Positions 10,220 through 48,794 of a stretch of 64,000 bases of DNA are shown one piece after another. The stretch spans positions 7,064-71,063 of the forward strand of contig VBAX01000049.1 in NCBI GenBank assembly GCA_005883075.1, read 5' to 3'. The DNA comes from Candidatus Bathyarchaeota archaeon. Its GTDB lineage: Archaea; Thermoproteota; Bathyarchaeia; 40CM-2-53-6. Made by a program: the position numbers and the translations under genes. Below the pieces are notes generated by a model. That model was not told where the DNA came from. It saw only the letters and a program-made list of their open reading frames with translations, and did no database searches. Numbering within the stretch: position 1 is the stretch's first letter; each line of letters starts with the position of its first letter.

Positions 10220-11987
10220 TTGACCGACGAAACCGAAAACAACAATCACGAGACAACGACGAGGAGAAGGGTTTCAAGACGAGACTTTCTCAAGTACGGC
10301 GCAGGCGTGGCAGCTGTAGCCGCCGGAGCCAGCGGCTTACTGGGGAAAATCCCGTCCCTCCCATCACTTACAACGCCCACTTCGATCCACCAAGTCCCGC
10401 CCGACCCAGGCATCGAGGAGGTTACCATAGCACAACTTGAAGCACAATATGCGGCCGGAACATTAACCGCAACCTCCGTCGTGAACATGTACGAGACCCG
10501 GATTAGTGCTCTCGACCAGAGTGGCCCGAGGCTCAACTCGCTTCTTCAAGTGAACCCAGACGCATTGACAATAGCCCACCAGCTCGATGCACAAACCCTT
10601 CCGTTCCCTGGGATACTGCATGGCATACCCATCCTCTTGAAAGATAACATCGATACACACGACCAAATGCAGACAGCAGCAGGCTCACTAGCCCTGGTCG
10701 GGACGCCCGCCCTACAGGATTCAACCATTGCTGCACACCTACGTGCCGCAGGCGCAATAATCTTAGGCAAAACCAATTTGAGCGAGTGGGCAAACTTCCG
10801 CTCGTTCTTCTCATCCAGCGGCTGGTCCGGCCGCGGGGGCCAGTGCAACAACCCCTACGCGATCGACCGCAACCCGTGCGGCTCCAGTTCGGGATCCGGG
10901 GCGGCCGCTTCCGGAAACCTGACCACTGTTTCCATCGGAACTGAGACCGACGGTAGCATCGTCTGCCCAGCGAACGCTAACGGAGTCGTAGGCATCAAAC
11001 CAACTGTTGGCCTTGTTAGCCGAGCCGGCGTCATTCCCATCTCGCACACACAGGACACTGTCGGACCCCACGCTCGAACAGTTGCCGACGCAGCAACCGT
11101 ATTGACCGCTATTGTGCAGAGAACTCCCGACCCGCGCGACCCTGCTACCAGCACTAGCCCGCTCGGCATGCTCGGCCAACCAAGACCTGTTCTGCCGGCT
11201 GACTATCGGGCATTCTTGAACCCCAAAGGCCTCCGGGGCGCCAGAATAGGAGTTGTTCGAGACTTCGAAGGGTTCAGCCCCCATGCCGATGCAATCTTCG
11301 ACTCAGCAGTTACCGCGATTGGGAGTGCGGGAGCGACCCTGATAGACCCGGTATCCTTCCCGCACCTTGCCGATATCAACAGCGGCCTTGCAGAGTTCAC
11401 AGTGCTTCTCTTCGACTTCAAGATAGACATCGCAAACTATCTCAAGACCCGAACAGGCGTACCTATCGCCAGCCCAACCCTTCAAGCCCTAATCGACTTC
11501 AACAACGCCAACGCCACCCAAGAGATGCCATTCTTCGCACAGGAAATATTCGATCTGGCAAACATGTTCAGTTCGGACCCGAACGCCATACAACCCCTCG
11601 GCTTGTCATACAACGACTCGCTAGCCATTGACCAGAAGATTGGAGCGACTAATCGCAGGGACCGACAGCCCAGCATGGCCCACGGACCTAATCAATGGGG
11701 ACCATTTCACGTTCGGAACCTCGTCGCCGTGTGCTATCGCAGGCTATCCTATCATCAACGTCCCAGCGGGCATGAGCTTCGGCGTCCCAGTCGGCATCTC
11801 TTTCATGGGCACCGCTTTCAGCGAACCCACACTCATCAAGCTCGCCTCAGGCTTCGAAGCCGTCACACAGGCACGGCAGAAGCCACAGTTCCTGCAGACC
11901 CTACCGTTCAGCGGCCCATCACCGTTCAAAGTGAGAGGACGCGGACTCCTTCCGAAAAGAAATACCCCACTAGTCAGCGGACTTTAA
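10220..11987 (+). pseudogene. amidase-signature family amidase with twin-arginine signal, disrupted by a +1 frameshift near 11625-11645
   Basis: The N-terminus has RRRVSRRDFLKYGAGVAAVAAGA (Tat motif). The AS signature is CGSSSGSGAAAS, with GTETDGSIVCPA. After about residue 470 the 613-aa frame becomes Arg/His/Pro-rich nonsense. The conserved C-terminus (PAWPTDLINGDHF..SSPCAIAGYPIINVPAG..GVPVGISFMGTAFSEPTLIKLA) lies in the +1 frame, ORF 11628..11987. Confidence 0.8.
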
Positions 11988-34942: not shown

Positions 34943-35135
34943 GGCTGGGGGTTCACGTGTATGGTTTTTTGGCTGCTAGAGCATGCTCTAGTCTGAGCGT
35001 TTGTGGGGACCGGTCGCGGCGGAATTAAACGTTTTTCCAGTGCTCTTGATCGAGACGCGGTTTGTGTGGATGCGGGGAAAGCCAATTAGGGCCTTGCATC
35101 TGCTCCGTTGCGTTGCGGGCAGGGACTTGGTATTG

Positions 35136-35250
35136 CGGGAGTTGCCAAGCCAGGTCAAAGAGACCCTTTGATTCGAGGGTCGTGGAAGCGCAGGCCTGAG
35201 GCGCCTGTCCCGTAGGGGTTCGTGGGTTCGAATCCCACCTCCCGCACCAA
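35136..35250 (+). tRNA. tRNA-Leu(GAG), class II, with a 27-nt intron in the D-arm and encoded CCA
   Basis: Hand fold: acceptor GCGGGAG/CTCCCGC, discriminator A, CCA encoded. D-arm GCC-AAGCCAGGTCAAA-G|GC is completed only after removing 35162..35188. Anticodon arm is CAGGC-CTGAGGC-GCCTG (anticodon 35199..35201). Long variable arm is TCCCGTAGGGGTTC and T-arm is GTGGG-TTCGAAT-CCCAC. Confidence 0.85.
35162..35188 (+). other. putative tRNA-Leu intron (non-canonical position, D-arm)
   Basis: AGACCCTTTGATTCGAGGGTCGTGGAA contains the hairpin GACCC/GGGTC. Removing it restores the D-stem and the normal 85-nt class II length. Boundaries are inferred from tRNA architecture, not from a verified BHB fold. 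Confidence 0.65.
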
Positions 35251-35360: not shown

Positions 35361-35465
35361 CTGTCCGGGGGGAATCCGCGCTTGTTTTTTCGAGACGGGT
35401 TCGTTATCGGCTTATCCAGGATTTCTTGATCCCCGTGGAATCCCCGAGTGATAAGCGTGGAAATC
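35361..35465 (-). repeat. dispersed intergenic repeat family 2, copy Y (inverted relative to X)
   Basis: The reverse complement GATTTCCACGCTTATCACTCGGGGATTCCACGGGGATCAAGAAATCCTGGATAAGCCGATAACGAACCCGTCTCGAAAAAACAAGCGCGGATTCCCCCCGGACAG aligns with 26165..26270. Confidence 0.65.
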
Positions 35466-35516
35466 TATGCTCTCAAAATCGCCTGCTTGGAATCGAGATC
35501 TGGGCTGACTATCGGC

Positions 35517-35912
35517 TTATCTTAGCTGATAAGCCCGAAATTCGCGGACTTTATCCCTGCTCTTGGGTTTCTGATCTCTTGGCGGGCTCAGCGAAGGTTG
35601 GGTACATGTAGCCTGGTGGAGGTTTTGTTCCGGTTTCTTTTCGAAGACCTCTTTCTTGATGACGAACATTTCATTCTCCATGGATTCAAGGCTCATACTC
35701 CTCAAAATCGCGTCCTTGTACCAGATCAACTGACCTGCAAGACGGGTCCACCTGATCCTCTCGCTTGCTGGAGCGCGCTTGGACTTTGCCATCCTCGAAG
35801 CCTCGTCAATCAGATCCCTTAACGCCGCGATCATGTTATGCCTCTCGGACTGGCGCCACTTAGACATCAATGGATACGGATCTTTCTCCACATCATAGGG
35901 GGGATCCGACAT
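35517..35912 (-). CDS. hypothetical protein
   Basis: 131-aa ORF with an ATG start and no recognised family. Its 3' end overlaps the GGCTTATC-N6-GATAAGCC palindrome. Confidence 0.45.
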   Translation of the reverse strand: MSDPPYDVEKDPYPLMSKWRQSERHNMIAALRDLIDEASRMAKSKRAPASERIRWTRLAGQLIWYKDAILRSMSLESMENEMFVIKKEVFEKKPEQNLHQATCTQPSLSPPRDQKPKSRDKVREFRAYQLR

Positions 35913-36367: not shown

Positions 36368-36635
36368 ATTAGGTATTCTCCGCGAAGAGGTTTGACGCGT
36401 GCAATTTCCTCCAGTAGATGGCTACTAGAAGAGTCCAGAAGCTTCACTATGCCTTCATCCCGTACAACGGGATGTCTCTGCGGCGAAGCTGGACGTCTAA
36501 AGACCCCCTTGAGCATCAATTCTCGTCCATTAGAATGTCTGCAATGATGGCACAACTGTCAGCTACGGGCCCGCCAAATACTCTTATCTGGGACGACTAC
36601 TCCCCGCCGTACACCTCGAGTAACGGATCGTAAGC

Positions 36636-37238
36636 GTGAGGCTGGAAAAAATGGGTCCTGATGGCGTCGTGACAGATTCGTCTCTAGAAAAGAAGCCAGA
36701 GGAGAAAGAGAGTCTTCCAATCGCGACCAGGGCTATACGGCTTGATGGAGATATTGACCGTGCGCTAGAAGCGATTGCAAAGCAAGAAAACCAGAGTGTC
36801 AGTCTCATCATGAACAAGGCCCTTCTCAGGTACGTAGACTGGGAACACCCGGCCGGAAGATTTGGCCTGATACCAGTGTCGGCTAGCGTCATGAGGAAGC
36901 TGTTCGAGCTATTGACTCTTGACCAAGCTAGGACTTTCGGCAAGGAGGCCGGAGCCCAATTCCTTTCCGAGTTCGTAAATTTCCGGTTTAAGGTCTTGAA
37001 CTTCAACGCACTCCTCAAAGCACTCGACTTCTTGGGAGACCGGTATGCCAGAGAATTCCATTTCGACCAGAGCTTTGATGGCAAAGTCCACACCATCATA
37101 ATAAAGCACGATAGAGGATCTGCTACGTCAGCATACTACGCTGAGGCATTGAAAGCCCTTCTCGAGCGCTTAGGTCTCAGAGCAGACACGGTCGAAAGCG
37201 ATCAACAGGTCACCATCACCGTCCGCGGTCATGATTGA
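36636..37238 (+). CDS. ribbon-helix-helix (CopG/Arc-like) domain protein with conserved about 130-aa C-terminal domain, paralogue 1
   Basis: 200-aa ORF. The RHH pattern is TRAIRLDGDIDRALEAIAKQENQSVSLIMNKALLRYVDWE. The C-terminal domain is shared with 38573..39148 (FGKEAG..SEFVNFRFKVLNF..LKALDFLGDRYAREFHFDQSFDGKVHTIIIKHDRG..SAYYAE..DTVESDQQVTITVR). Confidence 0.75.
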   Translation: MRLEKMGPDGVVTDSSLEKKPEEKESLPIATRAIRLDGDIDRALEAIAKQENQSVSLIMNKALLRYVDWEHPAGRFGLIPVSASVMRKLFELLTLDQARTFGKEAGAQFLSEFVNFRFKVLNFNALLKALDFLGDRYAREFHFDQSFDGKVHTIIIKHDRGSATSAYYAEALKALLERLGLRADTVESDQQVTITVRGHD

Positions 37239-37369
37239 AAGAATGAACACAGGTCGCCACGCAATAAGGGTCTCATATCGGACCGGCCATCGAAGTCAAT
37301 CCTCCTCTCCACATCTGCCACTGACAGGCCTATTTGGCCGATAAGTTCGGTCAGAGAACGGAGAGCTGT

Positions 37370-38155
37370 TTAGGAAATATTGCTCAGTTCGATCACCTTG
37401 GGCCTTTTCCGGATCATTCGCGCAATCGGGGAGGAGTCCGAGGACTTGTATGCTTGCCGTTCTCTTCGACTCAAGGGTAGGTGCGCACGCTCGAATCTCT
37501 CATCGCCGGGAGGCTGTAGGTTCTTCAACGGGTCCATCGAAATCTCTGCCACGACTTGGTTGTCCGTGCTGGTCAAACTGAACCGTTTGACCTCGCCTTC
37601 GAAGCTCTCTCTGATCATAGTTTCCAACATTCCTTCATAGAAGAGGGACCATTTCTTCCCCATGCCATGCAGAAGCGTCAACATTCGCGTGGAGCCAGTT
37701 GTGGCTTGGTCGAAATGGAACATTCTTCCGTATCGGCCGAACAGTTCAAGGACGCGGATACGAGGCACGATGCCATGCTCCCGAGAATAGGATGTGGCAA
37801 CAGTCCTCCACTCGTGGAGCCACTGCGACTTCCCAAGCTCGCGGACATGCTCCTCTGGGACCCACATCATCAGTTTGACGAGAAGCGAGGAGAATGTCGA
37901 CGCAACCCGGAACCTCTCGCTAACCACATCCCACTCCACGTATTTCCTCAACGCACGGTTAGCGATGACGTTTACACTGAGACCTTGTTGTTCGGCCTCC
38001 TTAGTGAGTCTTTCAATGGTGTCGGTTTCCAAATGAAAAGTGAAGGTCTTCGACTTGACTCGACGCGATCGGTTTGAAGAAGACAAAATTCTCGATCCCC
38101 TCTGAAGGAGGCTCCTCGACCCAGGGGTGTTGGTCCTGAGAACTAGCGAAAACAT
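37370..38155 (-). CDS. RHH domain protein, paralogue 2 (most divergent, C-terminal extension)
   Basis: 261-aa ORF. The RHH pattern is KTFTFHLETDTIERLTKEAEQQGLSVNVIANRALRKYVEWD. The same C-domain layout follows (VRELGKSQ.., LELFGRYGRMFHFDQATTGSTRMLTLLHGMG). Confidence 0.7.
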   Translation of the reverse strand: MFSLVLRTNTPGSRSLLQRGSRILSSSNRSRRVKSKTFTFHLETDTIERLTKEAEQQGLSVNVIANRALRKYVEWDVVSERFRVASTFSSLLVKLMMWVPEEHVRELGKSQWLHEWRTVATSYSREHGIVPRIRVLELFGRYGRMFHFDQATTGSTRMLTLLHGMGKKWSLFYEGMLETMIRESFEGEVKRFSLTSTDNQVVAEISMDPLKNLQPPGDERFERAHLPLSRRERQAYKSSDSSPIARMIRKRPKVIELSNIS

Positions 38156-38572
38156 TCACATTTAAACCAACACTTTTGGCCAAAGAACAAGAATAGCCCG
38201 CAATCATTAGAATCCCGCCACAAACTAGCCCTGCGGATATTAGGAGACGACCGGAACAATGCAGCGCTGGCTTGAGATGGATACATCAACACGAAAGGAT
38301 GGTTCCAAAGTCAGTGGGTTCCAAGTCTTGGATTCCCGTTATCGGGTTCAGCACAGCATGTTCAAGTCGGCGGTCTCAGCTCTGCGATCATCCTTCGTTA
38401 GTGAAATGAAGGTGAGGCATCTGAACAACGCACTGACGTGTTGGCCTTGATCCAACATCGCTGCCATCCCACGACATGCGCTCCGCGTTGAAGACCGGTG
38501 TGTCAAGCGGCGCTTGACAGCATAACCCTTTGCCTGATCAGGCCGAGTGAGCCGTCGTTATTACTACCTTAC

Positions 38573-39148
38573 CTAATTCCGAACTGTGATCGTAACCTGT
38601 TGATCGCTCTCGACCGTGTCCACTTTAAGATTCAAACGATTGAATAGAACCTTCGCCATCTCGGCGTAGTATGCTGACGTCATAGGTCCTCTATCGTGTT
38701 TGAAAATGATTGTGTGCATGCTCCCATCGAAGCTGTGTTCGAATCTGAAAGATCGGGCGTACTCGCTACCCAGAAGTTCCAAGGCCTTTACCGTAGTGTC
38801 AAAGTCAATCTTCTTGAACCAGAAGTTGATAAACTCAGAATACTCGTTCTCAGCCGACTGTCTGCCTAATTCCCTAGCTTCCGCGTCAGTGAGGCTCTCG
38901 TATATTCTCCTCATCTTGGCAGTAAACACCATCATGAACCCAAACTTCTCCGCATAGATCTCCCACTCAACATGTCTCCTGAGTGCTTTGTTAATTATGA
39001 AACTAATACTCACGTTTTCTTGATTCGCAAGCTCCTCCAACTTGAATAGAATGTCACCCTCAAGTCTTATGGTACGCGTCTCGCTCGAGACACGCGCGGG
39101 TTCAGCCTTCTCGGTTTCAAGCAATAGTTCGGTCAAGGAGTTTACCAT
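38573..39148 (-). CDS. RHH domain protein, paralogue 3
   Basis: 191-aa ORF. The RHH pattern is TRTIRLEGDILFKLEELANQENVSISFIINKALRRHVEWE. The C-terminal DTVESDQQVTITVR is identical to paralogue 1, and the coding DNA there is also near-identical. Confidence 0.75.
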   Translation of the reverse strand: MVNSLTELLLETEKAEPARVSSETRTIRLEGDILFKLEELANQENVSISFIINKALRRHVEWEIYAEKFGFMMVFTAKMRRIYESLTDAEARELGRQSAENEYSEFINFWFKKIDFDTTVKALELLGSEYARSFRFEHSFDGSMHTIIFKHDRGPMTSAYYAEMAKVLFNRLNLKVDTVESDQQVTITVRN

Positions 39149-39175
39149 GATTGGCTACCTGCGCCTGGTCGGCGG

Positions 39176-39886
39176 TCATCCTCCATAGGAAATGGGGATT
39201 TCTTGGTGCATTCGAGTCTCAGATGGTTGCCTACGGTATGATTCTGACCAGGTTGGCTTGCCTATTTCACGGGGAGTCTTTAGACGGATTACTACTTGGT
39301 CTTCGGTGCGTTCGGACTCTGGATCTAGATTCAGAAGGCCCTTGAATATGCTGGTCAAAAATTGTTCGTTGAAAACGGACCCTTTTGCGCCAAGTCCGTG
39401 TTTCACTATTATTGTATGCACTCTGCCATCGAAGGTGTGTTGCAGGCTGAAAATTCGGGCGTACCGGGAGCCGAGTAACCTTAGAGTTTCGAGAACAGTG
39501 TCCAGGCTTAGCTTCTTGAACCGGAAGAGTATGAAATCTCTCCCAAAGTTCTTTGCCGCCCATTCGCCTAGTTCCCTCGCTTGTTCGACTGTAAAATAAC
39601 TGTACATTTTCGCGTGCAGGAATCCTGGTATGGCGACGAAGCCGAATTTTTCCGCCGCGATATCCCATTCAGTAAGCTTTTGGAGAGACGAGGTCACGAG
39701 ATAGTTGACGCTGACACGCTCTTGTCTGGCCAGTTGTTGTAGCTCCAGATCGACTTGGGGGCTAAGCCGTATCGTCCTTGTAATCGTTTCGCGTGGCGTA
39801 AGGGTTCCCTGGTGGTACAACTGGTATTGGCAGGTGCGTATATTACTGTTCTGTGGTCTAATCCAATCACTTAGAACACCGCCCAC
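39176..39886 (-). CDS. RHH domain protein, paralogue 4
   Basis: 236-aa ORF. The RHH pattern is TRTIRLSPQVDLELQQLARQERVSVNYLVTSSLQKLTEWD. The C-domain reads ARELGEWAAKNFGRDFILFRFKKLSLDTVLETLRLLGSRYARIFSLQHTFDGRVHTIIVKHGLG. It lies 27 nt upstream of paralogue 3 on the same strand. Confidence 0.75.
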   Translation of the reverse strand: MGGVLSDWIRPQNSNIRTCQYQLYHQGTLTPRETITRTIRLSPQVDLELQQLARQERVSVNYLVTSSLQKLTEWDIAAEKFGFVAIPGFLHAKMYSYFTVEQARELGEWAAKNFGRDFILFRFKKLSLDTVLETLRLLGSRYARIFSLQHTFDGRVHTIIVKHGLGAKGSVFNEQFLTSIFKGLLNLDPESERTEDQVVIRLKTPREIGKPTWSESYRRQPSETRMHQEIPISYGG

Positions 39887-40392
39887 TCTGGTGGATATCT
39901 ATTCCTACACTTTTCTCTCCTGCGATTTCCCGAGTACGGCTTGATTGGTGCTGTCGATTGCAGTCAGCTTGTTAACGATGGCGGCGAGATATTACATGTG
40001 AGCACGACAGAACGTTTCGGATGCTCTTCGACTATATATCGAATGGTCTCCCTCCATTTGGCACCTTGTCCACCAAATCCAATGACCACAAGATGTAAGC
40101 GAGTATTTCGCAAGCAAAACCAGCCAAGTGAATTGGACGAATTTCCACCATTACACGTTGGAAGAGCTTTGGCTCTAGACACCTGACTCTTATCAAATTC
40201 TAACTCAACACCGTCCAACACGTTTCTTCTGTCGCCAGCTGGAAGCGTATTCGCGTCACATGATCAATTATCGCAGATTGACTTGCCAATTGAGTTGCGA
40301 TCATTTCCTCTGTTGTTGTTCGTAAACGTCCAGGCTATATGCAACAACGGTACTTACTCAGTAATCTCGGGATAGCTACGGAGTGAAAGTAG

Positions 40393-40620
40393 ATGCCAGT
40401 AGAATTTGAGATGCGAAAATGGTGCGCGATCGTAAAGCTCGAAGGATACACGACTCCCGCTAGCGCACGAGCACTAGTTCAAAAGTTTCACAATATCGTC
40501 GAGGGCTTCCGAGATGAGGGGGTCGACCTTGACGTCTTCATGCTCGTGGAGGATGAAAACGAGCTTCGATCAGTGGACGAATCTGTTACCCGCAAACCCG
40601 ACAGGACGAAGGAAAGGTAA
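40393..40620 (+). CDS. hypothetical small protein (first gene of the co-directional array)
   Basis: 75-aa ORF with an ATG start and an acidic C-terminal half. No family recognised. Confidence 0.45.
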   Translation: MPVEFEMRKWCAIVKLEGYTTPASARALVQKFHNIVEGFRDEGVDLDVFMLVEDENELRSVDESVTRKPDRTKER

Positions 40621-40667: not shown

Positions 40668-42098
40668 TTGATGTTAACTTGGGAATTCCCGCCGAGAATC
40701 ATAGGCGGCATTTCGACTCACGTCTACCACCTTTCAAGGGCTCTGGTGGAAAAGGGAACCTCGGTTCGCGTGATAACCTGCGATTTTCCCAATGCCCCTG
40801 CCGAAGAGATTATTGACGGGGTCCCGGTATCGCGAGTCGATAGCGGCCGGGTTCCTGAGTCCAACTTTCTCCTCTGGATCTATCATCTGAACTCCCAGAT
40901 GATCTCGAAAGCTACTGAGCTATTCGAGACTGAGAGATTCGACTTGATACACGCCCATGACTGGGTTGTGGGAAGGGCGGCTGTGGAACTCAAGAATCGG
41001 CTTGGTCTTCCGCTAATCTCTACAATTCATGCGACCGAGATTGGAAGGGGAGGTAGCTTAGACGGTGAGTATCGCAGGAAAGTGAGGGACATCGAGCGGC
41101 TACTGGTAGAGCAGAGCGACGGGATTATCTGCTGCAGCAACTACATGCTCGACCATATCCAATATGTACTCGGTGCAGTGAAAACCAAGATCCGCGTTAT
41201 TCCAAACGGTGTCGAAGCATCTCGGTTCAATAACGGCCGCCAGCCACAACTCATTCCGACTGGAGTTTCCGAAGACAGAAAAACCATACTCTACGTCGGC
41301 CGGATTGTTCGCGAAAAGGGTATCTTCACACTCCTGGATGCTTTTGAGAAACTGCGAAAGCAGGGGAAGGATGTCAGCCTCGTCCTCGTAGGTGAAGGCC
41401 CACTCAAAGAGGATTTGGCCAAGGAAGTCCTCCGGAGGAAACTGAACGACCGTGTTAAGCTCGCAGGATTCGTTGACGAAAAGAAACTAGTCTCCCTCTA
41501 CAATTCAAGCGATGCCTTTGTCCTACCATCCCACTACGAACCCTTTGGAATGGTCGCACTCGAAGCAATGGCGTCACGGGTCCCTGTAGTGGTCTCAGAC
41601 GTCGGAGGACTCTCCGAAATAGTTGAGGATGGAATAACAGGCGTGAAGGTTCCAGCCGCTAACCCAAGCACCCTCGCAGAAGGTATTCTTCGAGTGCTCG
41701 AGGATCGAGAACTCTCAGAGCAGTTGAAGGAGAACGCCTACCGAGCAGTGCAAGAGAGATACAGGTGGGATATGATTGCTGAGAAGACAATCGAAGCCTA
41801 TAGAATCAGTTTTGCCAAACCATCACCGTCTTCGAGAGCGGTAGAAGATGCTGAATTTCTCAGCGACCCAGCATTAGTACAATTCCTCTTGACGATAGGT
41901 GCAACAGACGGGGAGGGAGCCATAAGCGCCGGAGAGATAGCGTCTTTAATCAAATCCCCCGAAACTCCTGTGAAGCTCAGCCTTGGAAGGCAGGCCTCGC
42001 TGGGATATGTGTCAACAAAGCTCACCCCAGACTCAGCGAGAGTTCGCTACCACTTGAGTCCAGTCGGCATAATCAAAGCCTGCAGTGACATGTCATGA
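40668..42098 (+). CDS. GT4 family glycosyltransferase (glycogen-synthase/GlgM-like) with C-terminal winged-helix-like extension
   Basis: 476-aa ORF with LTWEFPPRIIGGISTHVYHLSRAL at the N-terminus and the GT-B C-domain EPFGMVALEAMASRVPVVVSDVGGLSEIVEDGITG. An extra about 90 aa at the C-terminus reads ISAGEIASLIKSPETPVKLSLGRQASLGYVSTK..RYHLSPVG. Confidence 0.85.
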   Translation: MMLTWEFPPRIIGGISTHVYHLSRALVEKGTSVRVITCDFPNAPAEEIIDGVPVSRVDSGRVPESNFLLWIYHLNSQMISKATELFETERFDLIHAHDWVVGRAAVELKNRLGLPLISTIHATEIGRGGSLDGEYRRKVRDIERLLVEQSDGIICCSNYMLDHIQYVLGAVKTKIRVIPNGVEASRFNNGRQPQLIPTGVSEDRKTILYVGRIVREKGIFTLLDAFEKLRKQGKDVSLVLVGEGPLKEDLAKEVLRRKLNDRVKLAGFVDEKKLVSLYNSSDAFVLPSHYEPFGMVALEAMASRVPVVVSDVGGLSEIVEDGITGVKVPAANPSTLAEGILRVLEDRELSEQLKENAYRAVQERYRWDMIAEKTIEAYRISFAKPSPSSRAVEDAEFLSDPALVQFLLTIGATDGEGAISAGEIASLIKSPETPVKLSLGRQASLGYVSTKLTPDSARVRYHLSPVGIIKACSDMS

Positions 42099-42213
42099 AA
42101 AACGATCAACTTCTGTCTTCATCTTCTCTCCATCAGATCATCATCAGTTACTCTCTACTCATCAGCAGACTCAGTCTCGAAGGAACTGCAAAGGACTCAA
42201 ATCAGGATCAGCG

Positions 42214-44751
42214 ATGAAGACTGAAAACAAGCGTAGAAGCAGAATCATCAGGCTGGTCCTCCTGACGGCAGTCTTGGCTGCTTCGCAGACCATCGGCTTC
42301 GAAACATCATGGAAATTGCAGACGGTCAATGCAACTCTATCGAGCAGTTCTGCTTTCCAGTACATAGTCACGATCTTAATGGAGAACAACGGGCTCTGCG
42401 ACGTCACTCCAACCGTTGTCTCTGGTTGTAGCTCCTCGTCAATACCCGCACCATACCTGACTACACTGGCTCAGACTTACGGATTCAGCACTCACTACAC
42501 GGCTGTAGATCATCCCAGCGAGCCTAACTATGTTGCGTTGTTCGGGGGAAGCACCTTCGGCTACACCTCTGACGGCTACTGTTGTTTCCAACTTAATGCG
42601 CCAAATCTTGTTGACCGACTAGAGACGGCAGGGCTCACCTGGAAGGCTTTTGCCGAGGACGCTTCAGGTTCTGGAACATGTAACTTCATGCCGCCCAGGT
42701 GGGGAGATCATTATCCGTTCATCGGCTTCAGCGACATGAAAACATCCGCGCGATGCGCCGACATGCTCACCACAACATCGCCCCTCGACCCAGAGTTCGT
42801 AGGCGCACTCAACGGAGCAACACTACCGAACTATGTCTGGCTCACTCCCAACGACACTGACAACATGCACAGTTCTTCAGTTGCCGTAGGCGACGCCTAC
42901 CTAGCAACCCTAGTCCCGCTGATCCTGTCCAGCAGAATGTTCACCACCCAGAAAGCGGCACTATTCATCGTATTCGACGAGGGAAACGACTTTTGCCCAA
43001 CAGGCAACAGCAGCAGTGACTGTGTCGTCGCAGAATGGTCCGGCCCAGCAGTGAAAAAAGCCTATAGCTCAAGCACGTTCTACAACCACTATTCGTACCT
43101 CTCAACTCTCGAAGCAAACTGGAATCTTCCAAGTCTAACTTCCAACGATGCGTCAGCCACTCCCATGACAGAGTTCTTCGGAGCCTCGCCACCACCCGCG
43201 CTCTCAGCTAGCTTCACCTACGGTCCATCTTTCCCCCAGACAGGACAGACCGTTTCGTTCACCGGCTCAGTTTCAGGAGGAAGCCCTCCCTACAGTTATT
43301 CTTGGAGCTTCGGTGATGGATCGACTGGAATAGGATCGTCTGCGCAGCACACCTACTCTTCTACGGGAACACTCACCGTGGCCCTCACAGTGAAAGATAA
43401 TGGCTCGCCCCAGCAGACCACGACATCTCAGCAATCCCTAACCCTCTCGGGTGCGCCTCCTCCGCTGACCGCTAGCTTCGCCTACAGTCCTTCTTCGACC
43501 CAGGCAGGACAACCGGTCACGTTCACAGCGAGCGCCAGCGGTGGGACGTCTCCTTTCACTTTTAGCTGGTCCTTCGGAGACGGATTGACCGGAACAAGCT
43601 CTCCTGTAACGCACACGTACTCGTCGGCAGGATCATACACGACTGCTCTGACGGTCAAGGATAGCAGTATCCCACAGCAGACAGCTACCTCTCAGAAGGC
43701 AGTCTCTGTTACTCACCCGCCCCCTCCCATATCTGCGACCTTTACAGTCAGTCCGTCTTCGTCTGACGTTAGACAATCTATCTCGTTTACAGCCTCTGCT
43801 TCCGGAGGGGCTCCGCCTTACAGTTACTCGTGGAGCTATGGAGATGGTTCTGCGGGGACAGGTCTCCAAGTGACCCACACTTACAATAGTGATGGAACCT
43901 ACCAGGTCACACTGACAGTCGCGGACTCACTGGGCAATGCCGGGACAGGATTATCGCCGGTCGTTATTGGAATGGCTTCCCTGCAAGATGGATTCACGTA
44001 TAGTCCTACTAGCCCGCAACCAAGTGATAGTATCAACTTTACAGCGTCTGCGAGAGGCGGGACTCCACCATACTCCTACTCTTGGGATTTTGGAAACGGA
44101 GCCTCAGCCTCGGGAGGCTACGCAACCTACTCCTATGCATCGGCCGGATCCTACACAGTGACTCTGACCGTCATCGATTCTGCGAACCGTTCGAATAACA
44201 CTTCTCAGAGGCTAACCATTTACTCGCCCGCTCAGCCAGATTTCAGGCTGAACACGGGTCAGTCGACCCTCAACGCTCAACCGGGTTCTGACCAATCACT
44301 AGCTATCACGGTAACGAACGACGGGGGTCCTTCGGGAACAATCATGTTCAACGCAACGATCTCACCAGCTGGGCCTCAGATCTCGCTCAACCCAGCAAGC
44401 ATTACTCTATCACCTGAAGGTTCAGGCTCTACCAGTCTGAACGTAAACGTCGCTCCAAACACTACTCCCGGACCTTACTGGATACAAGTGAATGCTACCA
44501 ACGGATCCGTAACGCATTCTGTCACTGTACAAGTCGATGTCGCTCAGCATAGCCAGCCGCCCACGTCAAGTCAGCCGTGCCAGTTCTGCCTCGTCTCAAC
44601 TGCAATCATTACCAGCTTGGTAGTTGCAGGCACGGCAACACTTGTCACCCTTCAAATGCGCAGACGAAGAATCCCAACGTTTCGAGTCAGCACAACGAGC
44701 GAACACGATCCAAACAGAGCTGGTCAGCGTCTAGGGAGGCCGCTTCAGTAG
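42214..44751 (+). CDS. membrane-anchored surface protein: phosphoesterase (PLC/AcpA-like) domain + 5 PKD domains + C-terminal TM anchor
   Basis: I chose the Met at 42214 (MKTENKRRSRIIRLVLLTAVLAAS signal/anchor). The phosphoesterase pattern is YIVTILMENNG, EPNYVALFGGSTFG, NYVWLTPNDTDNMHSS, ALFIVFDEGN. There are five W.FGDG PKD units (e.g. PPYSYSWSFGDGSTG) and a C-terminal LVSTAIITSLVVAGTATLVTLQMRRRR. Confidence 0.85.
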   Translation: MKTENKRRSRIIRLVLLTAVLAASQTIGFETSWKLQTVNATLSSSSAFQYIVTILMENNGLCDVTPTVVSGCSSSSIPAPYLTTLAQTYGFSTHYTAVDHPSEPNYVALFGGSTFGYTSDGYCCFQLNAPNLVDRLETAGLTWKAFAEDASGSGTCNFMPPRWGDHYPFIGFSDMKTSARCADMLTTTSPLDPEFVGALNGATLPNYVWLTPNDTDNMHSSSVAVGDAYLATLVPLILSSRMFTTQKAALFIVFDEGNDFCPTGNSSSDCVVAEWSGPAVKKAYSSSTFYNHYSYLSTLEANWNLPSLTSNDASATPMTEFFGASPPPALSASFTYGPSFPQTGQTVSFTGSVSGGSPPYSYSWSFGDGSTGIGSSAQHTYSSTGTLTVALTVKDNGSPQQTTTSQQSLTLSGAPPPLTASFAYSPSSTQAGQPVTFTASASGGTSPFTFSWSFGDGLTGTSSPVTHTYSSAGSYTTALTVKDSSIPQQTATSQKAVSVTHPPPPISATFTVSPSSSDVRQSISFTASASGGAPPYSYSWSYGDGSAGTGLQVTHTYNSDGTYQVTLTVADSLGNAGTGLSPVVIGMASLQDGFTYSPTSPQPSDSINFTASARGGTPPYSYSWDFGNGASASGGYATYSYASAGSYTVTLTVIDSANRSNNTSQRLTIYSPAQPDFRLNTGQSTLNAQPGSDQSLAITVTNDGGPSGTIMFNATISPAGPQISLNPASITLSPEGSGSTSLNVNVAPNTTPGPYWIQVNATNGSVTHSVTVQVDVAQHSQPPTSSQPCQFCLVSTAIITSLVVAGTATLVTLQMRRRRIPTFRVSTTSEHDPNRAGQRLGRPLQ

Positions 44752-44752
44752 C

Positions 44753-45805
44753 TTGAGAGTGTACATGGAGCAGCTTCGGCCCGACACTCTTGAAAACCTG
44801 GCTACGAGTTACAGACTGGGTAGCGCTATCCAGTCCGGAAAGCCTGCGAAAGGCGCACACTACGTTGTGTATCGACTCCGCACGCCGCGTGGTGATTTTG
44901 CCCTACTCAAGCCGCGACCACTCTCGATCAACGAATCGTACGGAACAAGCCTTCTGGAGGAACTCCGCCGAGCGAACAGGATCTTTCATCATCTTGCCCG
45001 CCACGGATTTCCCGCGCCCGCTCCTCTGTTAACGAGAGCAGGTTCGACGATAGTGACGATCAAGGGAGAACACCATGCTGTCTATCCCTATGTTCACGGC
45101 CGGGCCATGGTGAGAGGTAATATTCGCCAAGTAGCAAAGGCCGGTGTAACCCTTGGTTCTTACCACCGCATAATGGCAGACTACCCGAAGAGAATGAGTC
45201 GATCCGAAGAGCCGTTCCCCAGCCGATTCCAAGACCGAGTGGACTTGTTCACCGAAAACGTCGAGGCCCTGGACGGACAACCCTCGGCTCTTGGGATAGA
45301 GGCGAGTCTGGACTACTTCAAGGACAGTCTGCTGGACATCGAGTTATCGCTGCTGAGGCTTTCGTATGAAAATCTGCCGCAGCTGACAATCCATGGAGAC
45401 TACAGACGCCAGAACATTCTGTTCGAAGGGGACAGGCTAGCCGCGGTCATAGACTTCCATCGCTCTAGGATTGAAGTTCGGTCCTTGGACCTTGCAATAG
45501 CGCTCGCGGACATTCTACCGAGCACGAGTAATGGGCACGCTCTGGGCCTGGCTCGTAGTTTCATCAATTCCTACGAGAAAGTCCAGCAATTGTCGAATGA
45601 CGAGCAAGAAGCTCTCCCTGTCCTGGTAGAGGCGAGAGTTGCTTGGAGAGCTCTTCGCAGGATTCGCAGAATCGTCAATACCAAAGACAAGAAGAAGATG
45701 CTGAGACGAGCTCGAAAGTTTCAGCTCTACGTCAGTCATCTTCGTAGGGTCAGGATGATCCGGTCAAGCTGGAAGCAGATATTCGCGGAGGAAAGTAGCC
45801 GGTGA
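44753..45805 (+). CDS. APH/CotS-like phosphotransferase-fold kinase 1
   Basis: 350-aa ORF with the catalytic loop LTIHGDYRRQNILF and AAVIDFHRSRIEVRSLDLA (HGD..N / DF motif of the aminoglycoside/choline/maltokinase fold). Confidence 0.75.
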   Translation: MRVYMEQLRPDTLENLATSYRLGSAIQSGKPAKGAHYVVYRLRTPRGDFALLKPRPLSINESYGTSLLEELRRANRIFHHLARHGFPAPAPLLTRAGSTIVTIKGEHHAVYPYVHGRAMVRGNIRQVAKAGVTLGSYHRIMADYPKRMSRSEEPFPSRFQDRVDLFTENVEALDGQPSALGIEASLDYFKDSLLDIELSLLRLSYENLPQLTIHGDYRRQNILFEGDRLAAVIDFHRSRIEVRSLDLAIALADILPSTSNGHALGLARSFINSYEKVQQLSNDEQEALPVLVEARVAWRALRRIRRIVNTKDKKKMLRRARKFQLYVSHLRRVRMIRSSWKQIFAEESSR

Positions 45806-47751
45806 TGAATACGGCCGTAACCGTTCAACGCGAAGTCGCTGCTCTAGCAATAGTCCACCACGCAAACCAGTACGTGGTCACGGATGGTTATGATAACCGG
45901 GTCGGAATATCAGGGATCGTCGGAACCTCCTCGTCTCAAACGGGTCTCCTTCGAGTCCTGAAACTCCACGAACGATACAGAGTCCCATTTAGCCTCCATA
46001 TTAGCGGCACCTTTCTCGAATCTCTAGCATGGCACAGCCCTGAGTTCCTCTCGGAGGTGAATCGGCTGGCTGGGCTTGGGCTGGTGGACCTCTTAGGCGG
46101 CGCCTACGCCCAGAATATGACACGATTCTTCTCCCCAGAGCATAATCTGAGACAGATGAACGAGGAGCTCCTCCTCTACGAGAGCCTCATCGGCTGGGAC
46201 CCGAAGAAGATCACAACATTCTGGCCAACAGAGCGCCTCTGGGAAACTGAAGCAATGGCGCCTCTCCTGACAAGCTGCGAACTACTCAATGGAGGCTATC
46301 AGCATGTTGTGATAGACGATAGGCTGCTCCATTCTACGACAGGAAGCCCCAGTCCTCGCCAACTCTACGACTACGACCACGCTTGGAACCCGGTCAACTT
46401 CCAGATGCACCGTATCAAGAATGGCCTGGGACTCTGCGCGCTCCCAATCTCGTTTGGACTCCGCCGAAACATTCCTCCGCGAACACGAGAAGACCTGGAG
46501 AAAACCCAGGCTCAGCTGGAATGGATTCTTGACATTAGCTCCGACTATGACAATCAGCTCGTCGCAATCTATGCGGACGACATGGAGAAGGTCGCCGGGG
46601 TAGGCTGGGACGCAAGGGGTCCCCTCCAGTTCGAGGCGACGCTCAGATGGCTCTCCGAAAACCCATTCCTCCAGCCTGTCAAGCTAGCCGAATGGGCTGC
46701 CACGCACAGGGCAGGATCCGAGAGACAGATCGACACGGGTGCATACGCAGAGCTTGTCGATGAGTTCGGGGCTGGTGAGAACTACGAGTCTTGGTATTAC
46801 GACCCGCGATGGTCCCTCTACCGCAACTACTATGCCTGGTCAGAAGAGAGAGTGCGAGAGCTCGACTCTAGTGGAGCCGACCCGGCTCTCATGCAACTCG
46901 CCTGGAAAACTCTGCTGGCAACGACATGGCAGACGGCATGGCACACTCCCCGGACCGGGGCCCATGGAGAAAATCTAAGCGATGAGGGGCCCAGCGCTTG
47001 GACCCGGGCTATAGCCAGTCATAGTCGGATCGCAGCAATAATTGCTGAAGCAGCCTACTGGATGACTCACAAGAGTGGCCGGGCCCAGGCTGATCTTAGG
47101 GATCTGGACTCAGACGGGGAAGACGAGCTTGTTCTCAAGAATGACAAACTATTCGCGGTTTTCTCTCCAAGGCATGGCGGTCGCCTGGTCTACCTGTTCA
47201 CTGTCAGCAATCCGCCGGGCAGACTGGTGATCGGGAACCCCATCGACGATTGGAATCTACTAGAAGATCTCCACGCATACATGGATGCTCCACCCAATCA
47301 TCCAGGAGCACTCGCAGATGTTGGATACGAGCATGACCACTACACCACAGAGCTACGCGTACCGTATGGAGACACCGTATGGGCAAGACTCTCAAACTCC
47401 GAGAAGAAGAGCACCGGCTTTGGAATACTGAAGAATCTCAGCCTCGGAAAGGGCGAGAGTACAATCCGCACAGAGTACAGCCTCCCGAACTCTCTACCCA
47501 GACTGTCCACAGAGATAGGATTCTCACCAGATTATCAGCAACTCCTCAGAATGGGACCATCAGCCGTCGAAGAATGTTCTCCCGCCAAGAGCATCAGAGG
47601 ATGGTCCAACGAAGGAGTGACCGTTGGGGCCCGGCTCGACGGAGGATTCGCGATATGGGATAAGCCGAGACAGGATCGGTTCGGACATGGTTACCTCTTG
47701 AGAGTGACAGGATTCCGTGGTTTCACTGTCTGGATAGGAGCGGAGGACTAG
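45802..47751 (+). CDS. GH57 family-like glycoside hydrolase/glucanotransferase
   Basis: 649-aa ORF with IVHHANQYVV (region I-like), FWPTERLWETE (region III W..ER.W with nucleophile Glu) and IYADDMEKVAGVGW (region IV DD.EK..G with catalytic Asp). Its start overlaps the kinase-1 stop. Confidence 0.7.
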   Translation: MMNTAVTVQREVAALAIVHHANQYVVTDGYDNRVGISGIVGTSSSQTGLLRVLKLHERYRVPFSLHISGTFLESLAWHSPEFLSEVNRLAGLGLVDLLGGAYAQNMTRFFSPEHNLRQMNEELLLYESLIGWDPKKITTFWPTERLWETEAMAPLLTSCELLNGGYQHVVIDDRLLHSTTGSPSPRQLYDYDHAWNPVNFQMHRIKNGLGLCALPISFGLRRNIPPRTREDLEKTQAQLEWILDISSDYDNQLVAIYADDMEKVAGVGWDARGPLQFEATLRWLSENPFLQPVKLAEWAATHRAGSERQIDTGAYAELVDEFGAGENYESWYYDPRWSLYRNYYAWSEERVRELDSSGADPALMQLAWKTLLATTWQTAWHTPRTGAHGENLSDEGPSAWTRAIASHSRIAAIIAEAAYWMTHKSGRAQADLRDLDSDGEDELVLKNDKLFAVFSPRHGGRLVYLFTVSNPPGRLVIGNPIDDWNLLEDLHAYMDAPPNHPGALADVGYEHDHYTTELRVPYGDTVWARLSNSEKKSTGFGILKNLSLGKGESTIRTEYSLPNSLPRLSTEIGFSPDYQQLLRMGPSAVEECSPAKSIRGWSNEGVTVGARLDGGFAIWDKPRQDRFGHGYLLRVTGFRGFTVWIGAED

Positions 47752-47759
47752 TACCAGGT

Positions 47760-48794
47760 ATGACTCAGACGAATCGAAACTATCTTAACAGTGGATCTTT
47801 CAACGAGCCCATCCTCCATGGGCTGACCGAGGTCGAATTCGTAAAGGACATCCTAACCACCGAGGCATTCGACCCACGGTTACAGCAGCCGCTGGAGGGG
47901 TTCGAGACGCGAATCCTGAAGAGGCATCTACGCAAGGTAATAATCGACTACACTCTAAAATTCAAGGACTCGACCAGAAACTACATCGGCCTATACAGAG
48001 AATCAGACCAGCGTCTCGGACATACTTTCTCAGTCATGAAGACCCTGAGGTCAAACGGATTCGGACAAGAAAGCAATCTAAGAGTACCTAGCCCTGTTCT
48101 CTACATACCCCCACTTTCATTCCTCATGATGGAGCAGGCTGAGGGTCAGCCACTTCGTGAAATGTTCGAAAGCAGAATGGATTCAGGGCCTTACGTGAAG
48201 GGCGCGGCAAGATGGCTCGCAAAACTGCACAACAGCAACATTGGACTGGACGGCGAGTTCTCCCGTGATGATGAGATCGAAGCCTCTCGGAGATATGCGA
48301 GAGCTGGATCGTGGCTCCTTCCCACTCTAAAATCGGATATACAATCGATTTCAAACCAGCTGATCGACGCGCAGAAAACCCTCCCGCTCCACGCGAGGAA
48401 GCCCATTCATGGAGACTACCATCCGAGGAACATCATCGTCTCGCACGATCTGACAACCGTCATAGACTTCGAAGAAGCCAGGATGGGCGATCCTGCCTTT
48501 GACGTCGGCTATTTCGTAGCTCAGACCAAGATGACCCATGGACTGGGAGACGCCACTTTCGAAGCCGTCGAAGCATTCATCCAAGAATATCAAGAAAACC
48601 AGCCAAGCATAGACCCGGATCTTACGCAGCGAGCAGCAGTGTTCGAAGCACAGACATACCTTCAAAGAATCTACCACACCTACTACCTACTCGCCCTCAG
48701 GCCAGACTTTGATCTCATCTCGAATTGGCTGAACGAGTGCGAGGGTTGCATTCGAAAAGCACAGAGTAGTCGCCTGGAAACGGGGAAGCACTAG
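47760..48794 (+). CDS. APH-like phosphotransferase-fold kinase 2
   Basis: 344-aa ORF with PIHGDYHPRNIIVSHDLTTVIDFEEARMGDPAFDVGYF, the canonical HGD.H..N ... IDFE..G.P..D pattern. Confidence 0.8.
   Translation: MTQTNRNYLNSGSFNEPILHGLTEVEFVKDILTTEAFDPRLQQPLEGFETRILKRHLRKVIIDYTLKFKDSTRNYIGLYRESDQRLGHTFSVMKTLRSNGFGQESNLRVPSPVLYIPPLSFLMMEQAEGQPLREMFESRMDSGPYVKGAARWLAKLHNSNIGLDGEFSRDDEIEASRRYARAGSWLLPTLKSDIQSISNQLIDAQKTLPLHARKPIHGDYHPRNIIVSHDLTTVIDFEEARMGDPAFDVGYFVAQTKMTHGLGDATFEAVEAFIQEYQENQPSIDPDLTQRAAVFEAQTYLQRIYHTYYLLALRPDFDLISNWLNECEGCIRKAQSSRLETGKH

Follow-up and report, generated by a model that had tools for sequence, protein, structure and literature searches.

Four ancient ribbon-helix-helix paralogues of a Bathyarchaeia archaeon as candidate one-component regulators with an uncatalogued C-terminal domain

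Ribbon-helix-helix (RHH) proteins need two chains to form the two-stranded ribbon that reads DNA. NikR is the textbook example of an RHH unit joined on one chain to a C-terminal ligand-binding domain; the RHH of NikR dimerises to read DNA under the control of the C-terminal domain, which has an ACT-like beta-alpha-beta-beta-alpha-beta fold with His/Cys nickel ligands. Type II RHH antitoxins have about 70-100 aa, a toxin-binding tail and an adjacent cognate toxin. H-NOX is a sensor module coupled to an output, and its YxSxR sequence is the heme-propionate motif; the Cys cluster of V4R lies at the equivalent junction. Bet3/TRAPP proteins function in eukaryotic vesicle tethering and BcsD/CesD are bacterial cellulose-synthase scaffolds, and these proteins have no DNA-binding domains. 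To our knowledge, hardly anything has been explored of how Bathyarchaeia and soil Thaumarchaeota control transcription, since most of these abundant archaea have not been grown in culture. V4R includes stand-alone archaeal proteins and the phenol-sensing domains of XylR, DmpR, PoxR and MopR. It is thought to bind hydrophobic ligands and to signal in cis or in trans, either by itself or joined to regulatory domains (PMC2253512), and in general fold class it goes with Bet3 and H-NOX (PMC2253512, PMC5847659). HNOB and V4R are handled as related domains, and ATC hydrolase is an enzymatic relative of them (PMC5847659). CdrS and aCcr1 consist of an RHH alone and are connected with ftsZ2 (PMC7439475).

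The window analysed here is a stretch of 64,000 nt from Candidatus Bathyarchaeota archaeon (40CM-2-53-6; GCA_005883075.1, contig VBAX01000049.1, positions 7,064 to 71,063, forward). The source is a soil archaeon of the Bathyarchaeia. A family HMM search found exactly four copies in the window. These are the four open reading frames of the original prediction; they are present where it placed them and are homologous over their full length.

36636..37238, plus strand: p1, protein with RHH and predicted H-NOX-like-fold domain, 200 aa as listed (ORF list)
37370..38155, minus strand: p2, the most divergent paralogue, 261 aa as listed (ORF list; family HMM E 3e-56)
38573..39148, minus strand: p3, paralogue of 191 aa, reference for the structure model (ORF list)
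38951-39079: RHH of p3, about residues 24-66
38576-38923: C-terminal domain of p3, about residues 76-191
39176..39886, minus strand: p4, paralogue, 236 aa as listed (ORF list; family HMM E 1e-67)

The array runs p4-p3, then p2, then the convergent p1. A gap of 27 nt separates p4 from p3, which follows it on the same strand, and the two are therefore probably co-transcribed as an operon; the short spacing is kept in three other loci (L001, L003 and L007). p1 (family HMM score 192, E 6e-58) probably starts at ATG 36651, giving 195 aa, because its orthologues begin MSPDG. For p2 and p4 the start positions are uncertain, the listed N-termini being ambiguous.

The RHH unit predicted at the N-terminus is supported at the family level by Pfam, PDB and PHROGs matches. 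Among the 95 diverse family members used for the conservation and Pfam statistics, 45 matched RHH_1 (PF01402) and 51 matched HicB (best E 1e-5), and many other RHH families were matched too; the window copies score 15.3-18.8 bits on RHH_1, below the 20.5 cut-off. Against PDB sequences the family profile matches CopG, NikA, AvtR and MazE7 via the RHH. In the AF2 model of p3 an extended segment at residues 24-30 (pLDDT block 84) is followed by helices 31-44 and 48-69; the RHH strand itself is unassigned in the monomer, as expected. Conserved R25 (85%), T26 (65%) and R28 (96%) lie on the strand, S47-x-N49 (85% and 88%) caps helix B, and a conserved linker (E-W-D...F-G) joins the RHH to the C-terminal domain. 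By profile and modelled topology p1-p4 belong to the RHH superfamily (CopG/Arc/MetJ), and they are predicted to bind DNA as dimers. The p3 RHH also has a weak NCBIfam match to aCcr1 (E 0.07). Identity with CdrL as defined in PMC7439475 was rejected, with no DZR match, no Cys and no ftsZ nearby.

An exhaustive search found 1703 clusters of this family at E<=1e-3 and 929 at E<=1e-10, counted at 50% identity. The matches mostly span the full profile, which indicates a constant architecture. The family occurs in Bathyarchaeia and Thaumarchaeota, and the source annotations of its members are all 'hypothetical' or evidently wrong.

Over their full length p1 and p3 share 51-52% amino acid identity, p3 and p4 37-40% and p1 and p4 34%, whereas p2 is 24-28% identical to the other three (BLASTP E 1e-14 to 1e-20). 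The consensus strings first ascribed to all four proteins hold for p1, p3 and p4 and fail for p2, which has neither FWFKK nor ARELG. p2 retains W62, F69, G95, H151, G154 and S158, and ends in a basic, Ser-rich tail of about 50 aa. The tail shared by p1 and p3 had been described as near-identical in DNA and taken as a sign of recent duplication or gene conversion. In fact 36 of 42 nt are identical at DTVESDQQVTITVR, and the six differences are all synonymous. The recent origin is contradicted by the synonymous sites of the paralogues, which are saturated (pS 0.73-0.83), and by clustering in four genomes, where p1 and p3, whether whole or by their 3' third, follow the orthologue and not the genome. 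The DTVESDQQVTITVR motif is also conserved in orthologues from other genomes, and protein-level selection therefore explains the shared tail. The duplications that gave p1-p4 are ancient. All four genes are under purifying selection (dN/dS 0.06-0.28). The p1 orthologues in L001, L003, L004 and L007 are 70-86% identical (dN/dS 0.06-0.17), the p2 orthologues in L003, L004 and L007 74-87% (0.21-0.28) and the p4 orthologues 65-94% (0.12-0.17); dN/dS of the p3 orthologues is 0.09-0.18.

The same four-copy array, in the same order and next to the 75-aa and glycosyltransferase genes as here, is found in L003, L004 and L007. L001 and L002 carry a three-copy array with no p2 orthologue and the same neighbours, and array orthologues across loci are 65-94% identical. 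The array had been regarded as a local amplification in an accessory region. Since its synteny is conserved in at least five other loci, it is not in an accessory region, and it is a stable part of the chromosome of this Bathyarchaeia lineage. The synteny, the saturated synonymous sites and the clustering by orthologue also argue against p1-p4 being RHH antitoxins, or mobile-element or plasmid copy-control proteins (CopG/RelB-like), recently amplified in a tRNA-adjacent accessory island. Weak matches to RelB-like, CopG_antitoxin and HicB models, a tRNA gene 1.4 kb from p1 and a slightly lower GC at 38-40 kb (0.487) would fit such an island. But there is no adjacent toxin partner and no PADLOC match, PHROGs matches only the generic RHH unit (Arc-like/CopG-like, best 3.6e-5), and neither an integrase nor an att-like duplication was found. 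At 191-261 aa, p1-p4 are also twice the typical antitoxin length and have a folded second domain. This explanation is largely refuted and we consider it hardly credible.

The C-terminal domain of about 120 aa had been reported as unrecognised, and sequence comparison bears this out: none of the 95 members has a Pfam match there, NCBIfam and PDB sequences gave none, and no confident match of the whole protein to a characterised family was found in these three collections. AF2 modelled full-length p3 with pLDDT 82 and the domain alone with pLDDT 88 and pTM 0.83, and predicted the topology alpha-alpha-alpha-beta-beta-alpha-beta-beta. In Foldseek the best natural structural match of the isolated domain was H-NOX (TMq 0.61-0.68, rmsd 3.7-4.5 A, about 138 columns, probability 1.00), with Tt H-NOX (1U4H/3NVR) among the examples; BcsD/CesD (TMq 0.50-0.57) and TRAPP (0.56) ranked below it. 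The full-length p3 model returned the same natural families, H-NOX, BcsD/CesD and Bet3/TRAPP. This structural evidence is weak, with E-values no better than 1e-3 to 1e-2 and de novo designed proteins ranking above H-NOX. The ranking points to a simple, idealised topology, and the likeness to H-NOX could be convergent. TMt against H-NOX is only 0.43-0.50, because its distal N-terminal helices are uncovered. The model suggests a core topology that is the same as the core of H-NOX, V4R and Bet3, a resemblance at the fold level.

The original guess of a V4R-like ligand-sensing module survives at that level only, through H-NOX, BcsD/CesD and Bet3/TRAPP, and membership of V4R or H-NOX does not. The hhalign probability of the domain profile was 0.5% against Tt H-NOX (its sequence confirmed as 1U4H), and 0.2% each against one V4R protein and a 3-sequence V4R profile. 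HNOB (PF07700) and V4R (PF02830) each match 0/95 members, and the top 50 fold matches in PDB include no V4R entry. Across the alignment of 95 members there is no YxSxR motif and no conserved His on the helix before beta1 (the alphaF equivalent), the sole near-invariant His being H151. Heme binding is therefore not expected.

Conservation in the 95 members peaks at Y130 (86%), H151 (96%), G154 (94%) and S158 (91%), and the motif H-x-x-G-x-(K)-(W)-S lies at the beta2/loop/helix junction. The most conserved residues of the domain (Y, H, S) are polar and clustered. With H151 and S158 near-invariant and Y130 highly conserved, the domain might be a small hydrolase or transferase in a PutA-style enzyme-regulator fusion, and ATC hydrolase provides an enzymatic precedent among HNOB/V4R relatives (PMC5847659). 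But a conserved acidic third residue is missing (D152 is not kept family-wide), no profile matches any enzyme family in Pfam or NCBIfam, the Cys cluster of ATC hydrolase and V4R is absent, and the domain is small. An enzymatic role is thus very improbable.

The region between p4 and its divergent neighbour, and those before p2 and p1, contain the following elements.

40393..40620, plus strand: gene of a 75-aa protein, divergent from p4; conserved neighbour, function unassigned by Pfam/PDB
40277..40345, no strand: conserved non-coding block between the divergent p4 and 75-aa genes (cross-locus alignment)
40277-40290: palindrome ATTGACTTGCCAAT within the conserved block, perfect in L003 and L004
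40336-40343: TATA-like CTATATGC within the conserved block
38160..38177, minus strand: TATA-like TTTAAAT with flanking block, directly upstream of the listed p2 start
36582..36594, plus strand: TCTTATCTGGGAC element; the probable start of p1 follows about 60 nt further on

Orthologues of the 75-aa protein occupy the same position in L001, L003, L004 and L007 (62-97% identical), and 84-aa relatives adjoin family members in L005 and L015, with different flanking genes. The 75-aa protein has no Pfam or PDB match, and neither it nor the neighbouring 131-aa protein matches Pfam or PADLOC. The 75-aa gene is a candidate regulated target or partner of the array. A GT4/GT5-GH57-kinase (alpha-glucan) cluster lies next to the array, downstream of the 75-aa gene, and this GT/GH57 cluster shares in the synteny. 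Elsewhere, members of one subfamily invariably lie divergent to an orthologous V4R gene, and the genes on either side of the pair differ; the neighbourhoods of distant members revealed no common target.

Compared with the four loci, L001 among them, positions 40304-40343 show 90-97% identity; the figure for 40284-40323, which overlap them, is 72-95%. In contrast to the 40277..40345 block, synonymous sites between the window and L001 are near saturation. The block may serve the 75-aa gene as promoter and operator, and the RHH proteins may bind it. Its palindrome ATTGACTTGCCAAT occurs once in the window and is absent from the paralogues' own promoters. The 38160..38177 element is invariant in the aligned window, L007, L003 and L004, and TCTTATCTGGGAC, a candidate TATA-box or promoter element, is conserved in all five aligned loci. 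The motifs TATCGGCTTATC and GATAAGCC, earlier put forward as binding sites, cluster at 35405-35537, just downstream of the tRNA and >1.1 kb from the nearest paralogue start, and occur in none of the four promoters.

Our preferred reading, to which we give a probability of about 60%, is that p1-p4 are ancient paralogues of an uncatalogued family of archaeal one-component transcription regulators that would sense a ligand or a partner protein. Two chains would join their RHH units into the DNA-reading ribbon. The C-terminal domain would take up a small ligand, probably a hydrophobic one, or contact a partner protein, putatively at Y130, H151, G154 and S158, and occupancy of this site would alter DNA binding. 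The most likely targets are the promoters of the paralogues themselves and the neighbouring, divergently oriented 75-aa gene, whose upstream region has the unusually conserved block and palindrome; the downstream glycosyltransferase/GH57 cluster is possibly co-targeted. Mixed dimers or tetramers are possible because the four paralogues share one RHH type. A bolder version is doubtful in our opinion: the domain would be a hitherto unrecognised cysteine-free, heme-histidine-free branch of the H-NOX/V4R/Bet3 fold, specific to Thermoproteota-type archaea (Bathyarchaeia, Nitrososphaeria) that recognises a new ligand class via the Tyr-His-Ser site, and mixed RHH dimers or tetramers would integrate several signals at one operator for the 75-aa gene and the alpha-glucan (GT4/GT5-GH57-kinase) cluster.

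Instead of a ligand sensor, the C-terminal domain might be a Bet3/BcsD-like oligomerisation or protein-protein scaffold, which we regard as unlikely. It could build higher-order or mixed RHH assemblies, or dock the 75-aa protein or, in one subfamily, the stand-alone V4R protein; these roles too seem unlikely to us. The place of Bet3/TRAPP and BcsD/CesD among the best natural fold matches, the homo- or heterodimers of Bet3-family proteins (PMC2253512), the joint retention of four paralogues, the constant V4R pairing of one subfamily and the co-occurrence of a small 75-84-aa protein in two lineages are consistent with a scaffold. But the clustered polar residues resemble a binding or catalytic site more than a hydrophobic interface, H-NOX outscores Bet3 and BcsD in Foldseek, and dimerisation is already supplied by the RHH fold.

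Under the regulator reading, defining the family would add a new domain family for catalogues, give a handle on one-component signalling in Bathyarchaeia and Thaumarchaeota, and widen the H-NOX/V4R/Bet3-type fold by an RHH-coupled form. The four-gene array with its strongly conserved non-coding block is a concrete, testable candidate for a regulator-operator pair.

Compared with known systems, NikR shares the layout of N-terminal RHH and C-terminal control domain, but its fold differs from the alpha-alpha-alpha-beta-beta-alpha-beta-beta domain, and its C-terminal domain was not matched in Pfam (NikR_C) or PDB sequences. CdrL/CdrS and aCcr1 are likewise archaeal chromosomal RHH transcription factors (cell-cycle regulators), but the RHH-only build and ftsZ2 link of CdrS and aCcr1 are both absent from p1-p4. 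The V4R Cys cluster RCVFC...GC...CGKDxC is seen in the V4R neighbours, whereas the median Cys count per protein in the family is 0 and p3 has none. Bet3/TRAPP and BcsD/CesD are small alpha/beta domains forming dimers or oligomers, with 8-12% sequence identity to the family; Bet3 and BcsD match almost as well as H-NOX, yet they are scaffolds and not sensors. H-NOX has the same order of elements (helix, beta1, beta2, helix, beta3, beta4), and its YxSxR sits at the beta2-to-helix junction like the most conserved motif of the family, a correspondence of secondary-structure order and not of residue-level superposition. Only about two-thirds of H-NOX is covered, its distal N-terminal helices being absent from the domain, and unlike H-NOX as compared here the domain is RHH-fused and archaeal. 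The design of a DNA-binding domain with a sensor domain is well known, and the finding therefore widens a known theme and opens no new one; what is new, as judged by sequence comparison, is the second domain, which lies outside the Pfam, NCBIfam and PDB entries.

The original prediction of four ORFs sharing one architecture was borne out. An N-terminal RHH unit (domain 1) and a C-terminal domain of about 120 residues (domain 2) make up four paralogues, p1 to p4, which align over their full length and lie where they had been predicted:

36636-37238, + strand: p1 ORF
37370-38155, - strand: p2 ORF
38573-39148, - strand: p3 ORF
39176-39886, - strand: p4 ORF

Pairwise protein identity is 51-52% for p1 and p3, 37-40% for p3 and p4, 34% for p1 and p4, and 24-28% between p2 and the other three, with BLASTP E-values of 1e-14 to 1e-67. 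In the 64-kb window the family HMM found these four copies and no others. p2 is the much more divergent paralogue; the consensus strings first proposed for all four describe p1, p3 and p4, but p2 retains only the core invariant residues. Orthologues of p1 begin with MSPDG, which suggests that its true start is the ATG at 36651; it is uncertain where p2 and p4 begin.

p1 and p3 share a tail of 14 residues, and near-identical DNA at this tail had been read as recent duplication or gene conversion. The DNA is identical at 36 of 42 nt, and all six differences are synonymous. Synonymous sites are saturated between every pair of paralogues (pS 0.73-0.83). A comparison of p1 with p3 in four genomes, over the whole gene and its 3' third, grouped the genes by orthologue (0.67-0.88 nucleotide identity) and not by genome (0.64-0.74 for p1 against p3), and in the 42-nt tail the identity of p1 and p3 was no higher inside a genome than between genomes. 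On this clustering, recent conversion between p1 and p3 was rejected, and with the synonymous saturation it contradicts a recent origin of either kind. The tail motif (T/A)VESDQQVT also occurs in orthologues from other metagenomes; selection at the protein level accounts for the tail, so that recent duplication or conversion is unnecessary. Purifying selection acts on all four genes (dN/dS 0.06-0.28), and these ratios are the best evidence available here for regarding p1-p4 as expressed, functional genes. The four are probably ancient, sub-functionalised paralogues, which may also form mixed oligomers.

The array had also been assigned to an accessory region, whereas it was found in conserved synteny in related loci from other genomes and metagenomes, namely L001/L002 (GCA_040961345.1), L003, L004 and L007 (GCA_009787555.1). 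The order is a divergent 75-aa gene, p4, p3, p2 and then the convergent p1, with all four copies in L007, L003 and L004 and without p2 in L001/L002. p4 and p3, 27 nt apart, probably form an operon. In every case the 75-aa gene and a GT4/GT5-type glycosyltransferase adjoin the array, and phosphoesterase-PKD, APH-type kinase and GH57 genes come next. The far flank past p1 varies, with tRNA/L15/SecY in the window and a copper ATPase in L001. Orthologues are 65-94% identical across loci and paralogues inside a genome 25-55%. This synteny and divergence make it scarcely credible that p1-p4 are antitoxins or come from a mobile element and were recently amplified, the more so as there is no toxin and the PADLOC and viral searches were empty. 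A defence-system or phage origin was rejected, as PADLOC gave only Csa3 at a meaningless E-value of 0.024 and PHROGs only generic RHH proteins; no entry of the viral fold library matched at E ≤ 1e-3.

By its named relatives and the titles of the loci, the organism falls in Bathyarchaeia. L003 (DASPWZ010000018.1) is titled 'Candidatus Dormiibacterota bacterium' and L004 (DASPWY010000044.1) 'Candidatus Bathyarchaeia archaeon'; the two are collinear, with nearly identical genes in this region, and the L003 contig is probably mis-binned. Beside the array, window positions 40668-48794 (+) encode a glycosyltransferase of GT4/GT5 type (starch-synthase-like), a phosphoesterase carrying four PKD domains, a pair of APH-type kinases and a GH57 enzyme. 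The same genes adjoin the array in L001 and L007, and the cluster suggests alpha-glucan or glycogen-type metabolism.

The RHH assignment of domain 1 is upheld at the family level. The window copies score 15-19 bits on Pfam RHH_1, just under the threshold of 20.5, and among 95 diverse family members RHH_1 matched 45 and HicB 51 (best E 1e-5), along with many further RHH families. The family profile matched CopG, NikA, AvtR and MazE7 among PDB sequences, and Arc-like and CopG-like repressors in PHROGs. In the AlphaFold2 model of p3, the reference for residue numbers, residues 24-30 are extended and two helices follow. The most conserved residues of domain 1 in the 95 members are R25, T26 and R28 on the strand and S47-x-N49 opening helix B, which are the positions expected for an RHH. 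The linker to domain 2 (E-W-D...F-G) is also conserved, which suggests rigid coupling of the two domains.

Domain 2 is not recognised by sequence, as had been noted. None of the 95 members has a Pfam match in the C-terminal ~120 residues, and searches of NCBIfam and PDB sequences gave no match. That p1-p4 are enzyme-regulator fusions is very improbable. Source annotations of family members are all 'hypothetical' or evidently spurious. The JGI names of the members P0065, P0344 and P0348 ('predicted AlkP superfamily phosphohydrolase/phosphomutase', 'uncharacterized protein YxeA') are backed by no domain search and look like annotation errors.

AlphaFold2 modelled full-length p3 with pLDDT 82 and domain 2 alone with pLDDT 88 and pTM 0.83, and predicted three helices followed by beta-beta-alpha-beta-beta. 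In a PDB fold search with domain 2 the best E-values belonged to de novo designed proteins. The recurring natural matches were H-NOX (TMq 0.61-0.68, rmsd 3.7-4.5 A, ~138 columns, probability 1.00) and, lower, BcsD/CesD (0.50-0.57) and Bet3/TRAPP subunits (0.56). In the literature V4R and Bet3 count as a single fold, and HNOB is regarded as a relative of V4R (PMC2253512, PMC5847659). The guess of a V4R-like sensor thus finds support in the modelled fold but fails as V4R membership. hhalign gave domain 2 a probability of 0.2% against both a genuine V4R protein and the V4R profile, and 0.5% against Tt H-NOX, whose sequence was first confirmed as 1U4H; sequence-level homology to either was rejected on these values. 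The family lacks the V4R cysteine cluster (median Cys per protein 0) and the H-NOX signatures, namely the His on the alphaF-equivalent helix and the YxSxR motif. The likeness of the modelled fold to H-NOX/V4R may be due to convergence, because the topology is simple and designed proteins rank high.

Domain 2 could also be a scaffold or oligomerisation module, which we consider unlikely. Its conservation among the 95 members peaks at Y130 (86%), H151 (96%), G154 (94%) and S158 (91%), with the consensus H-x-x-G-x-K-W-S, and these residues fall where helix 3 ends and at the junction from beta2 to helix. By secondary-structure order, not superposition, this junction would be the place of YxSxR in H-NOX and of the Cys cluster in the V4R neighbour of one subfamily. 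A ligand- or partner-binding site at the conserved junction is therefore favoured.

An exhaustive HMM search of 1.84 billion representatives found 1703 family clusters at E ≤ 1e-3, 929 at ≤ 1e-10 and 104 at ≤ 1e-30. Most matches are 170-230 aa long and cover the whole profile, which indicates the same two-domain architecture across the family. Named members belong to Bathyarchaeota and Thaumarchaeota/Nitrososphaeria; the locus search used a narrower alignment and reached loci of two GTDB species only, a thin phyletic survey of named genomes. Distant members have widely different gene neighbourhoods, as would be expected of regulators that have diversified. Two neighbours recur. A protein of 75-84 aa adjoins family members in the window lineage and, among different flanking genes, in the L005/L015 lineage. 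The 75-aa protein of the window, with the pattern KW.A..KL.G.T...GVD...VE and no database match, is a candidate target or partner of the RHH regulators; it and its relatives lie as follows:

40393-40620 in the window, + strand: 75-aa protein
9534-9788 in L005: 84-aa relative
7452-7706 in L015: 84-aa relative

In the subfamily of P0362, P0368 and P0384 (~61% mutual identity), the divergent partner is always a Cys-rich V4R protein, orthologous across the loci (166-167 aa, 55-60% identical), and the outer flanks vary:

2065-2568 in L011, - strand: V4R partner
5371-5871 in L013, - strand: V4R partner
5379-5879 in L014, - strand: V4R partner

This pairing suggests that a true V4R protein and an RHH protein of V4R/H-NOX-like fold are functionally linked. 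The conserved V4R partner is limited to this subfamily. A universal divergent partner of ~155-167 aa was rejected, since the neighbours in L008, L010 and L011 (membrane, secreted beta-rich and V4R proteins) are mutually unrelated.

Candidate cis elements lie in the 506 bp that separate p4 from the 75-aa gene, where a block at 40284-40343 is conserved. Identity to all four loci, L001 among them, is 90-97% for its part 40304-40343, and the overlapping part 40284-40323 has 72-95%, although the window and L001 are almost saturated at synonymous sites. A TATA-like CTATATGC lies ~50 nt upstream of the 75-aa start codon. The region also contains the palindrome ATTGACTTGCCAAT, of which L003 and L004 have the perfect version ATTGACAAGTCAAT; the palindrome ATTGRCAAGTCAAT has no further copies in the window above chance. 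The non-coding block with palindrome and TATA-like element spans 40277-40345, where Rfam gave no match. Conserved TATA-like elements also lie upstream of p2 (TTTAAAT) and p1 (TCTTATCT).

The motifs TATCGGCTTATC and GATAAGCC, once proposed as binding sites, do exist, and GATAAGCC is over-represented, with 6 matches in the window where 1.45 are expected. They are clustered at 35405-35537, directly downstream of a tRNA, and were not found in the p1-p4 promoters; nothing ties them to p1-p4, and they were rejected as operators. The cluster contains two direct copies of TATCGGCTTATC, two inverted copies of GATAAGC(C/G) and the 8-bp inverted repeat GGCTTATC-N6-GATAAGCC. It is kept in L007 (about 11610-11740), with an identical G-to-A change in both direct copies. 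The tRNA is located between the L15/SecY ribosomal-protein cluster and the array:

35135-35246, + strand: tRNA gene with insertion, 112 nt (Rfam, 40.7 bits)

The insertion is presumably an archaeal intron; ARAGORN called no tRNA here. A 131-aa ORF at 35517-35912 (-) has no database match. Its L007 counterpart (11308-11580) has 90 aa, is 89% identical over the common part and differs at the C-terminus, so the last ~35 residues of the window ORF, which overlap the motif cluster, may not be coding.

Our preferred reading, with a probability of about 60%, is that p1-p4 regulate transcription as one-component RHH proteins. A ligand or partner at the domain of H-NOX-like fold would modulate how the dimeric ribbon binds DNA. 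The proteins would probably control their own genes and the 75-aa gene next to them; the glycosyltransferase/GH57 cluster may be a further target. Neither the domain 2 sequence family nor an RHH joined to an H-NOX/V4R-type fold was found in Pfam, NCBIfam, PDB or the literature searched. One archaeal 'long RHH' regulator, CdrL, was found in the literature, and its C-terminal domain differs from domain 2; identity with CdrL/CdrS was rejected because CdrL carries a double-zinc-ribbon domain and occurs in Halobacteria alone. The regulator family that p1-p4 would represent is sizeable and unnamed and comes from uncultured archaea of ecological importance, and it offers a concrete test system. The regulatory principle that we infer for this family is familiar. 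NikR likewise joins an RHH to a sensor domain, and the V4R-containing regulators XylR/DmpR likewise combine a sensor with a DNA-binding or activator domain.
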